NCBI GenBank assembly: GCA_944391425.1
Contig: CALXTO010000001.1
Location: 75,066 to 139,065 of the forward strand
From: an uncultured Alphaproteobacteria bacterium
GTDB lineage: Bacteria; Pseudomonadota; Alphaproteobacteria; RF32; CAG-239
Reading direction: 5' to 3'
DNA: 64,000 nt
Shown: positions 13,652 through 20,961 of the stretch, in pieces
Position numbering within the stretch: position 1 is the stretch's first letter
Layout of the letters: the number at the start of each line of letters is the position of its first letter
The notes under the pieces: generated by a model
What the model was told of the DNA's origin: nothing
Database searches by the model: none
What the model saw: the letters and a program-made list of their open reading frames with translations, nothing else
Program-made: the position numbers and the translations under genes

Positions 13652-15010
13652 TTAAGAAAAAATTTTTTCCACCTGTTTAATAACTCCCGAATCGATATAT
13701 AACAAGATGACGTCTCCCGGTTGCAAAAGCGTTGCCGGTTCAGGATAACAAATGCCATCCTTGTTCTGAACGACAAAAATCCGGCTTTGTTTGGGTAAGT
13801 TGATTTCGCCTATTTTTTTGCCGGCGGCGATGCTGTCATCACTGACACAGATTTCCCATATCTCTCCGCATCCGCGGCTGACCGAATAGGCATCCTGCAT
13901 CCGTGTTTTGCGGATTTCTTTGAGGATTTTGGAAATCGTCACTGCACTACGATCAACTAAAATGCTGCTGCCCATATTAAAAATCAATTCGTTGTAAGCG
14001 GGCGTATTAACTACGGACACAGCCGTTGTCACGCCGCTTTGGGCCGCGATAAGCGAAATCAGGAGGTTGTCTTTGTCATTGTCCGTAACGGCAATACTGG
14101 CATCGGCATGGCGGATATCCGCCTCATTTAAAATCAGGTCACTCATCATTTCGCCCTGAATCACGACAACATGATTTAAATCCAGAGCAATACGACGAGC
14201 AATATTGATGTCTTCTTCAATAATTTTACAGCCGGCAATGTTGTCATCGTGCTCTATCTCCTGCCCTAAATACTGGGCGACGGCATTGCCGCCGAAAATC
14301 AGCAGCCGCTCATTGACCGGTTTTTCCAGCCCGAACGAACGGATTGTTTTTTCAATTTCGTTCTGCGGCGTATAAACAGTTATTTCATCTTCACTTTTGA
14401 GACAGTCATATGATTCCGGAATAAAACATTCGCCATTGCGGACAACGTTAACAAAAGCGACGTTAAGCTCTTCATCCTGACGTCCGATTTGCAACAGAGG
14501 AATATCCGCCAAAGGGCATCCTGGTTCAAGCTTCAGCGTCAGGATACAGCCTTTGCTGCCTAAAACAGGCAAGACTCCGGAACTTCCCGGATACTTTAAA
14601 ATACGCAAAATATTCTCGGCAATATCAATATCAGGCGATATGATCAAATCAATGGGGATATTTTTATCGTTATATAATGTCGACCATAACGGATCCAAAA
14701 ATATTTCGTTGTTAATGCGGGCGATTTTACGCGGAATGTCAAACAGCGTATAGGCCACCTGGCAAATGACCATATTAACTTCGTCAATATCCGTTACGGC
14801 TAATATCAAATCGCATTCGGCAGCCCCTGCCCGCTCCAAAACCGTCGGATGAGAAGCCTGCCCCAGCACCGGCATTACGTCAAATTCTTTGGAAATTTCA
14901 TCAAGATTTCGCTGGTCTTTGTCAATGACCGCAATGTCATTGTTGCCTTTCACTAAATAACTGACAATGCTCTTTCCTACACTTCCGGCGCCACAGACGA
15001 TTATTTTCAT
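13652..15010 (-). CDS. trkA: Trk system potassium uptake protein TrkA
   Basis: Two Rossmann/RCK halves, with an MKIIVCGAGSVGKS start. I placed the start at 15010, which gives an ATGA overlap with the dusB stop. The ORF track extends to 15037. Confidence 0.9.
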   Translation of the reverse strand: MKIIVCGAGSVGKSIVSYLVKGNNDIAVIDKDQRNLDEISKEFDVMPVLGQASHPTVLERAGAAECDLILAVTDIDEVNMVICQVAYTLFDIPRKIARINNEIFLDPLWSTLYNDKNIPIDLIISPDIDIAENILRILKYPGSSGVLPVLGSKGCILTLKLEPGCPLADIPLLQIGRQDEELNVAFVNVVRNGECFIPESYDCLKSEDEITVYTPQNEIEKTIRSFGLEKPVNERLLIFGGNAVAQYLGQEIEHDDNIAGCKIIEEDINIARRIALDLNHVVVIQGEMMSDLILNEADIRHADASIAVTDNDKDNLLISLIAAQSGVTTAVSVVNTPAYNELIFNMGSSILVDRSAVTISKILKEIRKTRMQDAYSVSRGCGEIWEICVSDDSIAAGKKIGEINLPKQSRIFVVQNKDGICYPEPATLLQPGDVILLYIDSGVIKQVEKIFS

Positions 15011-15987
15011 TTTCCGTTTCCTTCCTGTTCGGAACACCTGTCAAAATAGCGGCAGACTTCCGCTACGGCTTCCGCCAAATCGGCAATGTGCACATATCTT
15101 TCACGAAACTTGCGGGCGTCACGCATATTCTTGCAGTACCAGCAAACATATTTGCGAGACAGTCCCAAAGCTAATTTTTCTCCATAATAGGCCGTCAATT
15201 CTTTAATATGGGTTAACAAAGCTTTCTTGACAAGCGGCAGCGGCATATTTTGCGGAGCAATCCCTTTTTCCAGATAATCATGGGTTTGGGCAATCAGCCA
15301 CGGGCAACCCAGCGCTGCACGGCCGATCATCACGCCGTCCGCTTTCGTATAGTCCAGCATTTCTTTGGCTTTTTCGGGCGAATCGACATCACCATTGCCG
15401 ATGACCGGTATGGATATGGCATTTTTAACGGCGGCAATAATGTCCCAATCGGCCTTGCCTGAATAAAACTCCGACCGGGTGCGGCCATGAACGGTAACAT
15501 AAGATGCGCCGCTTTCTTCGCACATCTTGGCAAACTCTACCGCATTGATGCTCCGGCAGTCCCATCCCTTGCGAAATTTGACACTGACTTTCAGCGGCGT
15601 TGCTCTGACAACCGTTTCAATGATCTTGGCTGCCTGCGGCATATCCGTCATCAGATAAGAGCCTGAATTCCCGTTGACAATTTTGCGAACGGGGCAACCC
15701 ATATTAATATCCAGAGCATGAGCGCCCAGTTCATAAGCCAGTTTGGCGGCATAATCAAAAATTTTTGCATCGCTGCCGACAAGCTGGACAATAACCGGAT
15801 AGCTTTCATCCCGAACATCGGCAATCCGGTATGTTTTCGGATTTTTGCGAGACAGCGCGTTGATCGCTACCATTTCCGAAACAATGTTGCCTCCGCCGAA
15901 CGAAGATACCAGCCGACGCATCGGTTTGTCGGTAATTCCTGCCATCGGCGCCAGAAAAACCCGGCTATTCAGATCCAATATCCGCAT
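15007..15987 (-). CDS. dusB: tRNA-dihydrouridine synthase B
   Basis: 326 aa with Dus family blocks (LAPMAGITD, VDINMGCP, VTVHGRTR). Confidence 0.9.
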   Translation of the reverse strand: MRILDLNSRVFLAPMAGITDKPMRRLVSSFGGGNIVSEMVAINALSRKNPKTYRIADVRDESYPVIVQLVGSDAKIFDYAAKLAYELGAHALDINMGCPVRKIVNGNSGSYLMTDMPQAAKIIETVVRATPLKVSVKFRKGWDCRSINAVEFAKMCEESGASYVTVHGRTRSEFYSGKADWDIIAAVKNAISIPVIGNGDVDSPEKAKEMLDYTKADGVMIGRAALGCPWLIAQTHDYLEKGIAPQNMPLPLVKKALLTHIKELTAYYGEKLALGLSRKYVCWYCKNMRDARKFRERYVHIADLAEAVAEVCRYFDRCSEQEGNGK

Positions 15988-16323
15988 TTACACCTTAAAA
16001 TCAAATTCCCGGTTATTTTTGAACATAAAATCAATCAGAACCGTCGGTTCTCTTAAAACCTGTCCGGCATTACCGTAACTGGCCGCGGCATAGGCCGTGT
16101 TGACGCTGTTTTCCGTTCCGTACCTCAGCAACTGATAGGAAACGCCGCTGTCAAGCAGTTTATAGGCATAATTTTCAACGCCTTGCCGTCCGCCGCCCCA
16201 ATCTTCATCTGTCGGTTCATTCTGCCGTTCAAAGGTTCCGGAATTGCGCTTTATTTTTTCGACAGAGCCTGATATCTGCCGGTGCAGCTGGCTGAGATAG
16301 TCATTTAAATAAAGCTTGTCCAT
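15988..16323 (-). CDS. hypothetical protein (111 aa) coupled to the giant coiled-coil gene
   Basis: It starts 8 nt after the stop of the 1393-aa gene and abuts the dusB start. No recognisable motif. Confidence 0.5.
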   Translation of the reverse strand: MDKLYLNDYLSQLHRQISGSVEKIKRNSGTFERQNEPTDEDWGGGRQGVENYAYKLLDSGVSYQLLRYGTENSVNTAYAAASYGNAGQVLREPTVLIDFMFKNNREFDFKV

Positions 16324-16330
16324 TTTTATC

Positions 16331-19300
16331 CTAATTCAGCTTATCCAGCGTTTTGGCCAAGATATAATAAAGTTTGCCGATGTCTGCGCCGGAAATAACC
16401 GAGAGCAGAATTCCCGAATGTTCATGCGTTTGCGCCTGCGAAATCAAAACCTCAAATTCCGACAGGTACGAACTGATGAGGTTGCGGAACTCGGCATTTT
16501 TTTCATATTCCTTACGTACGGCGGCAATCTGCTGTTTGCTCAGGTTTTTGGCCAGATAACGGACGAAAACCGCACTATCGCCGTTGTAATATTTTTTCCA
16601 TAAATCATCTTCATCTTTGGGATTAAAGACACGATTGATGTCAACGGAAATATTTTGCAGCTTTTCAATAATTGCGGCGGCTTTTTTAAGGAAGTCGTCA
16701 ATCTTCATGCCCTGATATCCGGAAGAAAGCTTTTTGAAAGCTTCATCGGCCTTTTTGGTTTGTTCACCAAGCAGTTTGACCTGGTTGCCGACAACATCGG
16801 TAAACTGGATAGACTGCTTGACAATGCCGTCGCCTTTATTGGCAAAATCCTGCCCCGTTTCGGCCAGATCTTTCATAACCAGGTTGACTTTGTTGATTGT
16901 CTCGTCCGCAGTTGCCACCAAAACATGTGACTGTTTGACAAAGACTTCGCCGGAAGAAAGAATTTCATTGGAAATCCGTTCGGCGTTTGCCGCGGCTTCG
17001 CTGATGGAAGCACGCAGTTTGTCTCCCGAATTCTCAAAATGGGCGGCGCTGATACGGGTTGCTTCTTCCATCTGCAGGCCGAGATTTTTCAGATCCTGCC
17101 CCAATGCCTTGACTTTGTCATAAGCAAGATTGGCGCGGTCGGAAAGCGCGTTTGAGGTATCATTCAAAACCGTATTGAAACAATCGACGAGTTTGCGGGT
17201 ATCTTCCGATATTTTGACCATTTTATCGCTTTGCGCCGAAATAAGACTGTTAATCTCATAAACGCCGCTGCTGGTTTCGGCTGTGACGGTATTGAAGCCG
17301 GCGATATATTTTTCATAGTCCTTAAATACACCGCCCAAATTTTCGACCGAATGATGAATGGCCGCGTCCAAATCCTCGCTGTACTGACTCAGCGACAAAT
17401 TGACCTGTTCCAGATTTTTCATGGAAGATTTGGAAACCTTGGCAATGTCTTCTCCGGCTTTGATCATGCGATCGCCGAGTACGTCAAATTCGTAGGCAAA
17501 CTTGGTGGAAGCCTCAAAAATATCGCCGGTATTGTTTTTGAAAGCGTCGTTAATTTCCTTCATCTTCTGGGCAACGTCATTGGTGGCGTCCGACAGATAT
17601 TTATATTGCTGGGCAAGCGAGGCTTCGCTCAGACGCGCCTGGGTTGCCAACGTATTGGCAACTTCGGTCAGGTTTTCTTTTTGCTCGGACAAAACCTTGC
17701 CGATGTCTTCTGACTGGGTTTTGGTTTTAATGATAGAAACGTCTATGTTTTTAATATGTTCGTCCAGCAGTTTGACAACATTCGACGTTTCTTTGGAGAG
17801 TTCACCCTGAGCAGATGAAAGCTTGGAACAGCTGTCTAAAATTCCTTTGGACGCTTCCGTACTGTCAGTTTTAACCTGCTTTACCGTATTGGTGAAACGC
17901 GTGATGTTGTCCTGAACCCGGTTGGCAATGCTGTTGAAATTTGTCGTAATTTCCGTAACCATTTTATTGACTGCGGTATTTTTGGCGCTGATGAGCTCCT
18001 CAATTTCCGACAGGCGGTCAATGGAACGATGACTGTTGTTAACCACGGACTCCGTGTGGCGGTTGGTATCTTCTTCAAGCATGACCATCCGGGAGAAAAC
18101 CTTATCCGCGCTTTGTTCAATAACCGCAATCTGCTTTTTCAAAGCTTCGCTCATCGTTTCCGTATTATCGGCAATTTTGTCGCACAAGTTATAGAACTCG
18201 TTTTCCTGCCGCTTAAACAAAACATGGAGAGCCGCCGCCTTATCGTCCAGACTTTGGGCAACGTCAGCGACATAGCCCGCCGCCGCTTTGGAAACAGAAT
18301 TAAGCGACTGGCTCTGGTTTTCAAATGCGGAAACAGATTGATTCAGACTCTCTTCAGCCGAAGAGGTAACGTCGTTAACAGCTTTAATCTGGCGTTCCAG
18401 AATGCTGTCGACCATGTTGGCACGGTCGGCTATGCTTTGCGAAAGTACATCCATATTCTGCGACTGCGCCATCAGGGTATTCTCAAACTGCGTTACCTTG
18501 GCCAGAGTCCGGTTGACGCTGTCATCAAACATGTTTGACTGCTCTGCTAAATTGTCGTTGATGGCTTTGCTCTTATTGATAACCTCATTGCAGGAAGCCA
18601 GCATGACACCGAGATTGCTCTTGAGCTTTTCGACCGTAACCGACGCGTCGTTTTCCAAAGAGGCGGAAACTGCCGACAGTTCTTCAATCTGGCGTTTGAG
18701 CTCAGCTTTGATGTCCTCAACTTTGTTGACCGAATTGGTAATATTTTTCTGCTGTTGGGCCAAAGAAGCCTCGCTGATCTGGCTTTGGGCAACCACCAGA
18801 GAAGAAGCCTCGGTTAAAGACGTCGCATACTTATTCATGTTTTCCGCCACGTTATTCATATCGATAATGGAGGAATCCGATTGGATTTTGATATGTTCGG
18901 CAGAATGTTTGACTTCTTCGTTGAGTGCGGCAATCTGCAAAGAAACATTGTTTATCGTGTCATTGACGTGTTTATGGCGCGCCAGCAATTCTTCCGCCGC
19001 AGCCGTAATCTTGTCCATGGCATCGCTGTTCAGGCGGTCCAGGTCGGCGGTTTTTTCCTGCAGGGTTTCAATATAAGAAACGATGTCGTCATTGGCGGCA
19101 GCTGATTTCTCTCCGATTGCATTGGCGCTCAGGGCCAAAGTATCGTCAACACGCTGCATTGCTTCGGCTGCCTGCTGAGAAACCATGTTCAGGTTTGCAA
19201 CCTGGGTAGCCACGCTTTCTTCCAGATTGCTGCTTCTGACCATCAGACGATCAATTTCCTGAGCGATGTTTTCGCCGTGTTTGGCGAATTTCTGAATCAC

Positions 19301-20512
19301 CCCGTCAGCCCGTTGATCCAAAGCGTTCATAAAGTCCAGAATCTCGTGGTTGTGTTTAGCTAAAGCCCCGTCGACTTTTTTGATTTGCGCGTCAACCGAT
19401 GTATCCAGACCTTCCAAGCCCTTGGCAAGGTTGCCGTTGATTATATTCAGATTGTCTGCGGCATGCTTGCCGAGCTCGTCGATTTTACCGCGCATCATAT
19501 TGCCGCTGGACGCCAGAACCTGTTCCAGTTTTGCGCTGTGGCTGTCAACGGCATTCTCCAGACTGACGACCTCGGATGCAACGGCTTTCTTTATCATGTT
19601 GCAGTTTTCAATTGCCGATTGGGAAACCTGCTGCAGCACATTGGTCTGCCCTTCCAGCATTTCCACCACTTTGGAAAGGCCTGCGCCGGCCTCTTCATTA
19701 TATTGCTGCAACAGCTCATTGGCACGCGCAATATCGCGGTTGCTGGACGAGGCAATATTATTGAGCAGTTCCGCAGAAGTCTTGATCTCCTTCAACCGGG
19801 GCAAAAGTTTATCAAACAGTCCGTTCATGCTGCTCTCAATTTCATCGGCGCCGGAAACGAACTGGCGGTTCAATCCGGCAAACGTTTCTGCCGAGGCAGC
19901 CGCCTTATCCGATATTGTTTCAAAATTTTTGAGCAGAAACTTCACGCCTTCGCTCAATTCAACAATCGTTTTGGAGGAATAAGTATCTAGAGTGCCGATT
20001 AGTTTGGAAAAGTCTTCAATGTTGCTTTTGATGCCGTCTTTTATTAAAGCTGTTTGTTCGGTTGCCGTTTTGGTGGCCTGCTGAAGCTCCACCACTTGGG
20101 AACGGATGGCGTCGGCCATGGCCTTGGCCGTCTGAGGTGCGCCGTCTTCCGGGTAAACCAGTTGGTTCATATAAGCACGCAGAAATTTAGCCTCTTGTTT
20201 GAAAGAAGTGCCACGGTCAATGTAGGCCATGACAACCCAAATAATCGCCAGCGGCAGCGTAATCCCCGCCAAAAAGCCGCCAAACTCGTCCGGCATCATC
20301 AGAAACAGGTTCGACCAGCCGAAAAACTGAGTGATATAAATCAGAACAACAGCAAACCAAACCACACTGACTCCCACCATCAGCCGGTGCAGATTGTTGT
20401 TCAACCAAGACTGTTTTTCTTCAATCGCGGCATAATTTGGTTCTTCATTCATAAATTGCGGAAGATTGGTGCTAGGTACGGCTTTGCGGCTCTCACCAGT
20501 TTGTTCTGACAT
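16331..20512 (-). CDS. very large membrane-anchored coiled-coil protein (TipN/GPR-like architecture), function unknown
   Basis: 1393-aa uninterrupted ORF. There are two N-terminal hydrophobic helices (LMVGVSVVWFAVVLIYITQFF and FLAGITLPLAIIWVVMAYI). About 1100 aa of S/N/A/E/K/Q-rich helical sequence follow, with internal duplication (...SEASLAQQ... twice). The C-terminal domain of about 150 aa looks globular (LWKKYYNGDSAVFVRYL...GKLYYILAKTL). Confidence 0.85.
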   Translation of the reverse strand: MSEQTGESRKAVPSTNLPQFMNEEPNYAAIEEKQSWLNNNLHRLMVGVSVVWFAVVLIYITQFFGWSNLFLMMPDEFGGFLAGITLPLAIIWVVMAYIDRGTSFKQEAKFLRAYMNQLVYPEDGAPQTAKAMADAIRSQVVELQQATKTATEQTALIKDGIKSNIEDFSKLIGTLDTYSSKTIVELSEGVKFLLKNFETISDKAAASAETFAGLNRQFVSGADEIESSMNGLFDKLLPRLKEIKTSAELLNNIASSSNRDIARANELLQQYNEEAGAGLSKVVEMLEGQTNVLQQVSQSAIENCNMIKKAVASEVVSLENAVDSHSAKLEQVLASSGNMMRGKIDELGKHAADNLNIINGNLAKGLEGLDTSVDAQIKKVDGALAKHNHEILDFMNALDQRADGVIQKFAKHGENIAQEIDRLMVRSSNLEESVATQVANLNMVSQQAAEAMQRVDDTLALSANAIGEKSAAANDDIVSYIETLQEKTADLDRLNSDAMDKITAAAEELLARHKHVNDTINNVSLQIAALNEEVKHSAEHIKIQSDSSIIDMNNVAENMNKYATSLTEASSLVVAQSQISEASLAQQQKNITNSVNKVEDIKAELKRQIEELSAVSASLENDASVTVEKLKSNLGVMLASCNEVINKSKAINDNLAEQSNMFDDSVNRTLAKVTQFENTLMAQSQNMDVLSQSIADRANMVDSILERQIKAVNDVTSSAEESLNQSVSAFENQSQSLNSVSKAAAGYVADVAQSLDDKAAALHVLFKRQENEFYNLCDKIADNTETMSEALKKQIAVIEQSADKVFSRMVMLEEDTNRHTESVVNNSHRSIDRLSEIEELISAKNTAVNKMVTEITTNFNSIANRVQDNITRFTNTVKQVKTDSTEASKGILDSCSKLSSAQGELSKETSNVVKLLDEHIKNIDVSIIKTKTQSEDIGKVLSEQKENLTEVANTLATQARLSEASLAQQYKYLSDATNDVAQKMKEINDAFKNNTGDIFEASTKFAYEFDVLGDRMIKAGEDIAKVSKSSMKNLEQVNLSLSQYSEDLDAAIHHSVENLGGVFKDYEKYIAGFNTVTAETSSGVYEINSLISAQSDKMVKISEDTRKLVDCFNTVLNDTSNALSDRANLAYDKVKALGQDLKNLGLQMEEATRISAAHFENSGDKLRASISEAAANAERISNEILSSGEVFVKQSHVLVATADETINKVNLVMKDLAETGQDFANKGDGIVKQSIQFTDVVGNQVKLLGEQTKKADEAFKKLSSGYQGMKIDDFLKKAAAIIEKLQNISVDINRVFNPKDEDDLWKKYYNGDSAVFVRYLAKNLSKQQIAAVRKEYEKNAEFRNLISSYLSEFEVLISQAQTHEHSGILLSVISGADIGKLYYILAKTLDKLN

Positions 20513-20544
20513 TTAATTATTCCCCAGAAAATATTATGTTCCCC

Positions 20545-20942
20545 AACCTGCTTCCCCACAGGCTGGAGGTATCTTACAGCATTATTTTCAAAAGGGAAAC
20601 ATTAAAAAAATCTCGCACTCACTTATCCACAACTGTAGGAGACTCCCAGTGCGTATCCCTTGCTGTCAATCGCGATACTCCCTGTGGTCGGCTTGCTGGC
20701 GGCAGCTCTGGTATCCGCAATAAGGTTTGTTCGGCAAGGTAAAATTTAATTGCATTTTAAGGTTTTTGCTTTAGGATAACTTCTGCTGTTGAGAGTTTCA
20801 GTGGCGGAGTCTGAAAACTCCTTATCTAGTATCCTTCTCCCTTTGGGGAGCCGGGGGAATAAGGCTATGCACGAAGAACCCGGACTGTCTACTAGAGCAG
20901 TTTTCAGCTCCCCGCCTTAATTTGTTTAAGGCGGTTTCTTTT
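20545..20942 (+). ncRNA. unassigned structured RNA or leader ending in an intrinsic terminator
   Basis: No credible ORF. A nested long-range rod spans 20556-20687 (pairings 20556-20573/20674-20687, 20576-80/20662-66, 20592-97/20656-61, 20614-19/20648-53). Hairpins lie at 20791-20821 and 20820-20866. Two mutually exclusive partners exist for 20811-20820. A terminator sits at 20912-20942. Confidence 0.35.
20912..20942 (+). terminator. intrinsic terminator (plus strand only)
   Basis: CCGCCTTAA-tttgt-TTAAGGCGG followed by TTTCTTTT. There is no A-run on the left side. Confidence 0.75.
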
Positions 20943-20961
20943 AACAAGAAATTCAGGAGTT

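Follow-up and report, generated by a model that had tools for sequence, protein, structure and literature searches.

In GPR of Agrobacterium tumefaciens (Atu1348, 2115 amino acids (aa)), two N-terminal transmembrane (TM) helices are combined with 1700 aa of helix, residues 1890-2000 are Pro-rich, and the C terminus, including the last 10 aa, is required for function (PMC8262873). RgsE of Sinorhizobium meliloti (SMc00190, 2089 aa) has TolQ, RgsA and RgsS as partners, and distant RgsE homologs, unaccompanied by other Rgs proteins, have been reported in Emcibacterales and Rhodospirillales (PMC7327166). The similarity between GPR and the Caulobacter protein TipN is already in the literature (PMC8546619); TipN consists of two N-terminal TM helices and a coiled coil, acts as a marker of the new pole and recruiter of TipF and ParA, and relocates to the division site (PMC4085708). 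Here, we analysed a stretch of 64,000 nucleotides (nt) from an uncultured alphaproteobacterium (GCA_944391425.1, contig CALXTO010000001.1, positions 75,066 to 139,065; hereafter the window), which encodes a membrane-anchored helical protein of 1393 aa, referred to below as the giant, followed by an open reading frame (ORF) of 111 aa and by dusB. Judged by profile comparisons, the giant is a true but distant relative of GPR/RgsE and TipN that is homologous to them at both ends. New in this analysis are the profile-level link to TipN at both ends, a census of the giant and its small partner across the whole order, and the finding of purifying selection on the small ORF.

Homology to GPR, RgsE and TipN and distribution of the family

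The comparison with GPR used the sequence printed in Fig. S3 of PMC8262873 as query, in an optical character recognition copy comprising 2099 of the 2115 residues, and E-values are given at Z=1e6. Hidden Markov models (HMMs) of the C-terminal domain of the giant (C-domain) match residues 1985-2098, i.e. the last ~115 residues of GPR, with 46.5 bits for a profile built from gut sequences only and 92 bits (E 1.3e-24) for a diverse profile. At the opposite end, a broad HMM of the N-terminal domain (N-domain) has a collinear match to GPR 102-208, which comprises the two TM helices and the next helix (26.7 bits, E 2e-4). This match required the broader profile, as the gut-only N-domain profile fails to reach GPR.

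For TipN, Caulobacter genomes were retrieved with a CtrA query and then searched with the C-domain HMM. Each of three Caulobacter species yielded a single match (per-genome E 1e-10 to 1e-7), which falls at the C-terminal end of an ORF that encodes two TM helices. The Asticcacaulis and Brevundimonas genomes gave no C-domain match at E ≤ 1. Close homologs (66-90% identity) of the ORF found in Caulobacter sp. AP07 (L358:3953-6859) carry the NCBI name “polar localization protein TipN”. Alignments of the family and of TipN, compared by hhalign, matched in the C-domain with 97.5% probability (E 5e-12, 108 columns) and in the N-domain with 85% (E 6e-6, 100 columns), the latter reaching 19 bits with the HMM. 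Both TipN of Caulobacter sp. AP07 and GPR have a Pro-rich linker and then a “GGW(S/I)...LL.G” motif before the C-domain, neither of which is present in the gut-clade proteins.

The original prediction, made from the window alone, had compared the giant to the polar landmarks TipN and GPR and had confined the resemblance to architecture. The kinship with landmark-type proteins is supported by our results, but its restriction to architecture is not, as both end domains are homologous. The likeness thus reflects real homology, and the giant is therefore, by the profile evidence, a distant member of a known family.

This family is widespread. A search of 1.84 billion proteins with the C-domain HMM gave 1515 representative matches at E ≤ 1e-3. 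Of 401 sampled Alphaproteobacteria, 161 have the C-domain and 102 are matched by a narrow N-domain profile. The N-domain is present wherever C-domain proteins are full-length, at total lengths between 326 and 2000 aa. Since the two domains co-occur, we regard these proteins as a single family, conserved at both ends and variable in its helical middle. Among the named members are Dongia, Kiloniellales, Rhodovibrio, Tistlia, Algihabitans, Haematospirillum, Novispirillum, and Roseospira. Within the order of the source organism, 148 of 151 genomes (genome sizes 1.3-2.0 Mb) encode exactly one C-domain protein. These proteins fall into two length classes that sort by genus, one of ~1310-1450 aa (long) and one of ~685-790 aa (half-length). 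The half-length proteins of sister genera have the same C-domain and no small partner.

The source assembly (1.47 Mb, 52 contigs, 100% complete) contains the giant as a single-copy gene. Homologs of near-identical length were found in metagenome-assembled genomes (MAGs) of gut and rumen Alphaproteobacteria, which also include the closest named relatives, e.g. “Proteobacteria bacterium CAG:495” and Candidatus Scatocola, placed by NCBI in Rhodospirillaceae incertae sedis.

Membrane anchor, rod and C-terminal domain

Table 1. Features of the giant locus, with positions in the window.
Feature	Position	Strand	Basis or remark
Giant gene (1393-aa membrane-anchored helical protein)	16331..20512	-	ORF; distant GPR/RgsE/TipN family member by profile comparison
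N-terminal domain, residues 33-148 (TM hairpin, short periplasmic loop, juxtamembrane helix)	20069..20416	-	Conservation, HMM, hhalign
Predicted TM helix 1, residues 44-64	20321..20383	-	Kyte-Doolittle 19-residue window up to 2.14
Predicted TM helix 2, residues 79-99	20216..20278	-	Kyte-Doolittle window up to 2.26
Helical rod, residues 149-1243	16784..20068	-	Pro-poor; 25/7 hydrophobic periodicity
Internal duplication copy A, residues ~501-652	18557..19012	-	hhalign of clade sub-alignments
Internal duplication copy B, residues ~883-1038	17399..17866	-	hhalign of clade sub-alignments
C-terminal domain, residues 1244-1393 (conserved core ~1269-1393)	16334..16783	-	HMM, hhalign, AlphaFold2
Giant-small ORF junction	16324..16333	-	Giant TAG and 7-nt spacer; AGGA overlapping the stop
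Small ORF (111-aa partner gene)	15988..16323	-	Lineage-restricted
dusB	15007..15987	-	ORF; begins directly after the small-ORF stop codon

The giant has only two segments with a Kyte-Doolittle hydropathy above 1.6, residues ~40-71 and 76-99, and none further on. The second TM helix carries a Pro and a Trp that are conserved family-wide and is followed by Arg and Lys residues. Conservation is strong at both ends of the protein, with a mean column identity of 94% over the N-terminal 110 residues (six gut-clade sequences) and of 73% over the C-terminal 150 residues (nine sequences).

The ~1100-residue rod is nearly devoid of Pro, with a single one in the 1090 residues from 151 to 1240. Its hydropathy follows one sharp period of 3.57 residues (25/7), with a power of 456, whereas shuffled sequences (n = 200) averaged 57 and never exceeded 96, and the autocorrelation peaks at lags of 25, 50, 75, and 100. 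The period is found in each 200-residue segment of the rod but is only partly in phase, the whole-rod power being about half of that expected under perfect coherence. In a relative of the 1334-aa class (P0057), the 3.57 period is almost perfectly phase-coherent (whole-rod power 1177 vs. ~1320 expected), and the 62 extra residues of the 1393-aa protein may introduce a phase shift. Measured from the N-domain motif to the C-domain motif, anchor and tail lie exactly 1173 residues apart in 73 of 105 cluster representatives and 1111 residues apart in another 23. The share of rod residues that the giant has in common with its relatives varies among 50-residue windows, from only about one quarter to about three quarters.

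The rod contains an internal duplication. Profile-profile comparison of clade sub-alignments by hhalign aligned residues 501-598 with 883-980 (97.3% probability, E 1.6e-11), at an offset of 382 residues, and extended the match to 562-652 vs. 944-1038 (96.4%), giving a unit of ~150 aa; the motif SEASLAQQ is conserved in both copies clade-wide. A BLASTP comparison of the giant with itself did not detect the duplication. The two peptides that the original prediction had paired as copies occupy nt 18743-18817 (residues 566-590) and nt 17597-17671 (residues 948-972), near the positions it had given. Its further description of the locus agrees equally well with our data, including both ORFs and the abutment of the smaller one on dusB, the two N-terminal TM helices, the helical stretch of more than 1100 residues, and a compact C-terminal domain of ~150 aa.

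An AlphaFold2 model of the C-terminal 150 aa has a mean predicted local distance difference test score (pLDDT) of 85 and a predicted template modelling score of 0.76. Of its seven helices, a long one leads to a compact bundle of the other six, and the compact part begins at about residue 30 of the 150. No fold in the PDB matched this model (best Foldseek E 0.13, template modelling scores ≤ 0.37), and no PDB sequence profile matched the C-domain. Taken with the Pfam and NCBIfam searches, none of these comparisons assigned the C-domain to an unrelated characterised family, the counter-case that had been named in advance.

The small gene between the giant gene and dusB

The stop codon of the giant gene (TAG) is followed by 7 nt (gataaaa) and the ATG of the small ORF, and the TAA of the latter is followed without a gap by the ATG of dusB. 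The end of the small ORF, TTT AAG GTG TAA (15988-16005), supplies the Shine-Dalgarno sequence of dusB in its final codons AAG GTG. Thus, the conservation of the C-terminal residues “FKV” may partly be nucleotide-level selection for dusB translation.

Among 80 syntenic gut-clade loci, all of which have dusB downstream of the giant gene, 77 contain an intact ORF between the two. The two genes thus do occur together in related genomes, contrary to the second counter-case that had been named in advance. In most loci carrying it, the small ORF starts ~6-20 nt past the giant stop, and it ends at the dusB start or within a few tens of nt of it. Two loci (L063 and L080) have no small ORF and dusB follows the giant gene directly, so that dusB expression does not require the small gene. 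Most of the small ORFs encode either ~105-119 aa (short form) or ~185-199 aa (long form), and the two forms share an N-terminal helix (L..L..QI..SV..IK), a Y-A-x-x-L-L...S-Y motif, and a C-terminal PTVLIDFMFxNNREFDFKV motif.

The ratio of nonsynonymous to synonymous substitution rates (dN/dS) of the small ORF is 0.07-0.40 in 9 pairs, which identifies it as a genuine coding gene. Its evolution is about fivefold faster than that of the adjacent genes, with a dN of 0.376 compared to 0.069 for the giant and 0.108 for dusB. In the order, the small gene is single-copy in 72 of 151 genomes, belonging to 9 of 20 genera, all of which have the long giant, and at the loci listed it adjoins the giant gene. 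All 72 genomes fall in genera in which each sampled genome encodes the giant. As the small gene is thus confined to a sub-clade, it is an accessory rather than a core part of the family, and we conclude that the 111-aa gene is a translationally coupled, clade-specific accessory.

The small protein has no match in Pfam, NCBIfam or the PDB, and its AlphaFold2 model is of low confidence (pLDDT 59), in keeping with a protein whose folding depends on a partner. Binding of the small protein to the giant is plausible from the arrangement of the two genes, and the protein is probably an adaptor that would fold only when bound to the giant. Two points count against such a connection: the giant occurs without the small gene in 76 genomes of the order, and the link between the two is one of adjacency and coupling only.

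It is also possible, though in our view rather unlikely, that the 111-aa gene has no functional connection with the giant and instead is tied to the dusB-trkA-hfq-hflX operon, or that it is an orphan kept for the ribosome-binding site of dusB. The position of the dusB Shine-Dalgarno sequence in the final codons would fit this explanation, as would the fast evolution of the gene, the lack of a detectable fold or family, and its absence from the 76 giant-bearing genomes mentioned above. However, purifying selection acts over the whole ORF, and the conserved motifs at both ends reach far beyond a 6-nt Shine-Dalgarno sequence. Furthermore, the gene is found only beside long-form giants, mostly within the short distance from the giant stop given above, and the two loci without it show that dusB can follow the giant directly.

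The gene order around the pair is parC and recO upstream of the giant gene, and trkA, hfq, and hflX after dusB. The original prediction had described the pair as inserted upstream of dusB. A recent insertion is not supported, because the GC content of the giant/small ORF region (0.44-0.51) is the same as that of the flanks and the order parC-giant-(small)-dusB is kept in the related loci that include the flanks. The giant gene is thus ancestral at this position in the clade. A consensus scan of the minus strand from the giant start to hflX found only weak terminator-like hairpins (5-8 stem pairs, 3-4 of them G-C), the total of which was not clearly above the shuffled expectation (21 vs. a mean of 12.5, sd 4.3). 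Upstream of the giant start lies an intergenic stretch of ~450 nt (20513-20961), which must contain the promoter of the giant gene.

Possible roles and comparison with known systems

We consider it reasonably probable that the giant is an inner-membrane-anchored cytoplasmic scaffold of the GPR/RgsE/TipN family, whose likeliest function would be a TipN-like marking of the new pole or division site. The source genome encodes MreB at full score (522 bits) and TolQ. In addition, a C-terminal motif of DUF2497 (PopZ-type, PF10691) outside the window (G000:C24:3986-4093), part of an open frame of 360 aa, scores higher than the Pfam cut-off, so the genome probably has a PopZ-like pole organiser. Because of the presence of MreB, TolQ, and this PopZ-like protein, a TipN-like role is favoured over polar wall growth of the Rhizobiales type.

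By analogy with the RgsE-TolQ interaction and the recruitment of TipN to the division site, the TM hairpin might dock the giant to a conserved envelope or division partner. The rod would then be a fixed-length spacer or a self-associating scaffold, ~160 nm long at full extension, and the C-domain could recruit client proteins, with the 111-aa protein acting on the giant as a lineage-specific adaptor. A more specific version of this model, which we regard as speculative and decidedly improbable, is that the rod is a molecular ruler of 1173 or 1111 residues built from 25-residue units, and that the small protein plugs a client onto the C-domain. In that case, the rod of these gut bacteria with small genomes would define a constant distance or the size of a ring at the pole or division site, and the client could be e.g. 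the flagellar or chromosome-segregation machinery.

Several observations are at odds with the proposed scaffold role or with the kinship on which it builds. The similarity of the N-domain is weak by bit score for GPR as well as TipN, no NCBIfam model, including any behind the TipN naming, matches the giant at E ≤ 1, and no model reached its cut-off in the Pfam and NCBIfam scans. PF01442 (apolipoprotein A1/A4/E), multiple domains of which serve to describe GPR, was absent from the Pfam scan at E ≤ 1 and reached 19.3 bits in the genome search, against a cut-off of 90. The rod period of 3.57 differs from the ~3.63-3.65 of GPR, and the rod passes straight into the C-domain without the Pro-rich linker of GPR and TipN. 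Finally, a TipF-like protein with TM helices and an EAL domain was not found in the source genome. The genome does encode two weak EAL proteins without evident hydrophobic N-terminal segments, as judged by eye from their sequences. These are tandem paralogous ORFs of 425 and 422 aa outside the window (L361:853-3405, contig C16) with degenerate matches of 31 and 22 bits, and they may be effector-like proteins responding to cyclic di-GMP.

Alternatively, the giant could be a pole-independent, membrane-bound rod, i.e. a ruler or element of a membrane skeleton that sets a cell dimension or shape, such as a spirillum-like curvature, through its fixed length and amphipathic stripe. The two preferred anchor-to-tail distances, kept despite only partly shared rod residues, would be in line with this, and so would the 3.57 periodicity along the entire rod, albeit partly in phase, the half-length forms of ~700 aa in sister genera, and the near-universal presence of the protein in the order. 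Still, the two relatives that have been characterised belong to the pole or the division site, a polar scaffold could equally well have a fixed length, and no observation made here bears directly on cell shape. We think this role unlikely.

A function identical to that of GPR/RgsE, forming a ring at the growing pole that organises unipolar peptidoglycan synthesis, appears more doubtful still. Both end domains are common to GPR, GPR and RgsE are the best-matching characterised relatives, and the C-terminal residues required for GPR function fall within the shared domain. However, pole-growing Rhizobiales lack MreBCD (PMC8546619), whereas a full-score MreB is encoded here, and the rod of the giant is differently built and considerably shorter. 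The other Rgs proteins, which were not searched for in the source genome, are reported to be absent outside Rhizobiales (PMC7327166).

It is hardly credible that the giant is a coiled-coil protein of another kind, such as an SMC-like protein, a ZorA-like anti-phage protein, a chemoreceptor or the tape-measure protein of a phage. The sub-threshold matches to SMC (25.5 bits, cut-off 729), ZorA (23.9, cut-off 190), and ATG17 (26.8, cut-off 43) are all confined to the rod and, on the model side, to coiled-coil segments (positions 406-602 of 619 for ZorA), the TM hairpin and C-domain match GPR/TipN and none of these families, and the gene is syntenic and present as a single copy, has a normal GC content, and is near-universal in the order. 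We therefore rejected an identity with SMC, ZorA or ATG17 as coiled-coil noise, and the C-domain matches to GPR and TipN effectively refute this explanation as a whole.

Membership of the giant in the GPR/RgsE/TipN family places abundant uncultured gut Alphaproteobacteria within the polarity-scaffold family of Caulobacter, Agrobacterium, and Sinorhizobium. What this family has conserved is the TM hairpin together with the juxtamembrane helix, and the C-domain of ~120 residues; the rod in between has been freely rebuilt. If the improbable version with a ruler and a client-plugging adaptor is correct, a single alphaproteobacterial family, comprising TipN, GPR, and the gut branch, would have been re-tooled by swapping rod and adaptor. 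The gut clade offers compact, length-invariant natural variants and a candidate accessory subunit, which could help to map what the end domains bind.

Among the known systems, the GPR-like proteins of the Rhodospirillales type are single-copy and share the N- and C-domains with the giant (90-200 bits for the C-domain), and their helical middle varies in length, with totals of 2000 aa in Dongia, ~890 aa in Haematospirillum and Novispirillum, and 1075 aa in Roseospira. Rod lengths and periods differ from those of the giant (e.g. a period of 3.62 in Dongia), and their loci have neither the small partner nor the linkage to dusB. In 160 such loci, from which a gut-clade contig (L274) was excluded, the only sign of dusB near the GPR-like gene was a weak dusB-like match ~2.3 kb downstream in one of them (L203), and no conserved small partner was found downstream of family members outside the gut clade. 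In the Dongiaceae/Kiloniellales loci (L124-L183), which also lack the small partner, a protein of ~620 aa is encoded next downstream in 18 of the 94 loci for which a downstream ORF was found. Its start reads membrane-like and it is possibly an ABC-type exporter.

TipN (~880-970 aa) shares with the giant the two TM helices and a coiled-coil cytoplasmic part. It differs in its long Pro-rich N-terminal tail, its Pro-rich linker, and a much shorter rod, and its C-domain lacks the W-K-x-Y-x-x-G-D motif. The cell biology of its host, with MreB, PopZ, and Tol-Pal, is nearer to that of the source organism.

GPR and RgsE differ from the giant in that they are ~700 residues longer and their rods are built differently. 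PF01442 domains and a Pro-rich linker are features of GPR, but in the giant PF01442 stays below its cut-off and the linker is absent, and, unlike GPR/RgsE, the clade of the giant carries the additional coupled small gene. Common to GPR/RgsE and the giant are the TM hairpin with the juxtamembrane helix and the very long continuous helical rod, and GPR and the giant furthermore share the C-domain of ~115-125 aa, including the last 10 residues, which are important for GPR function.

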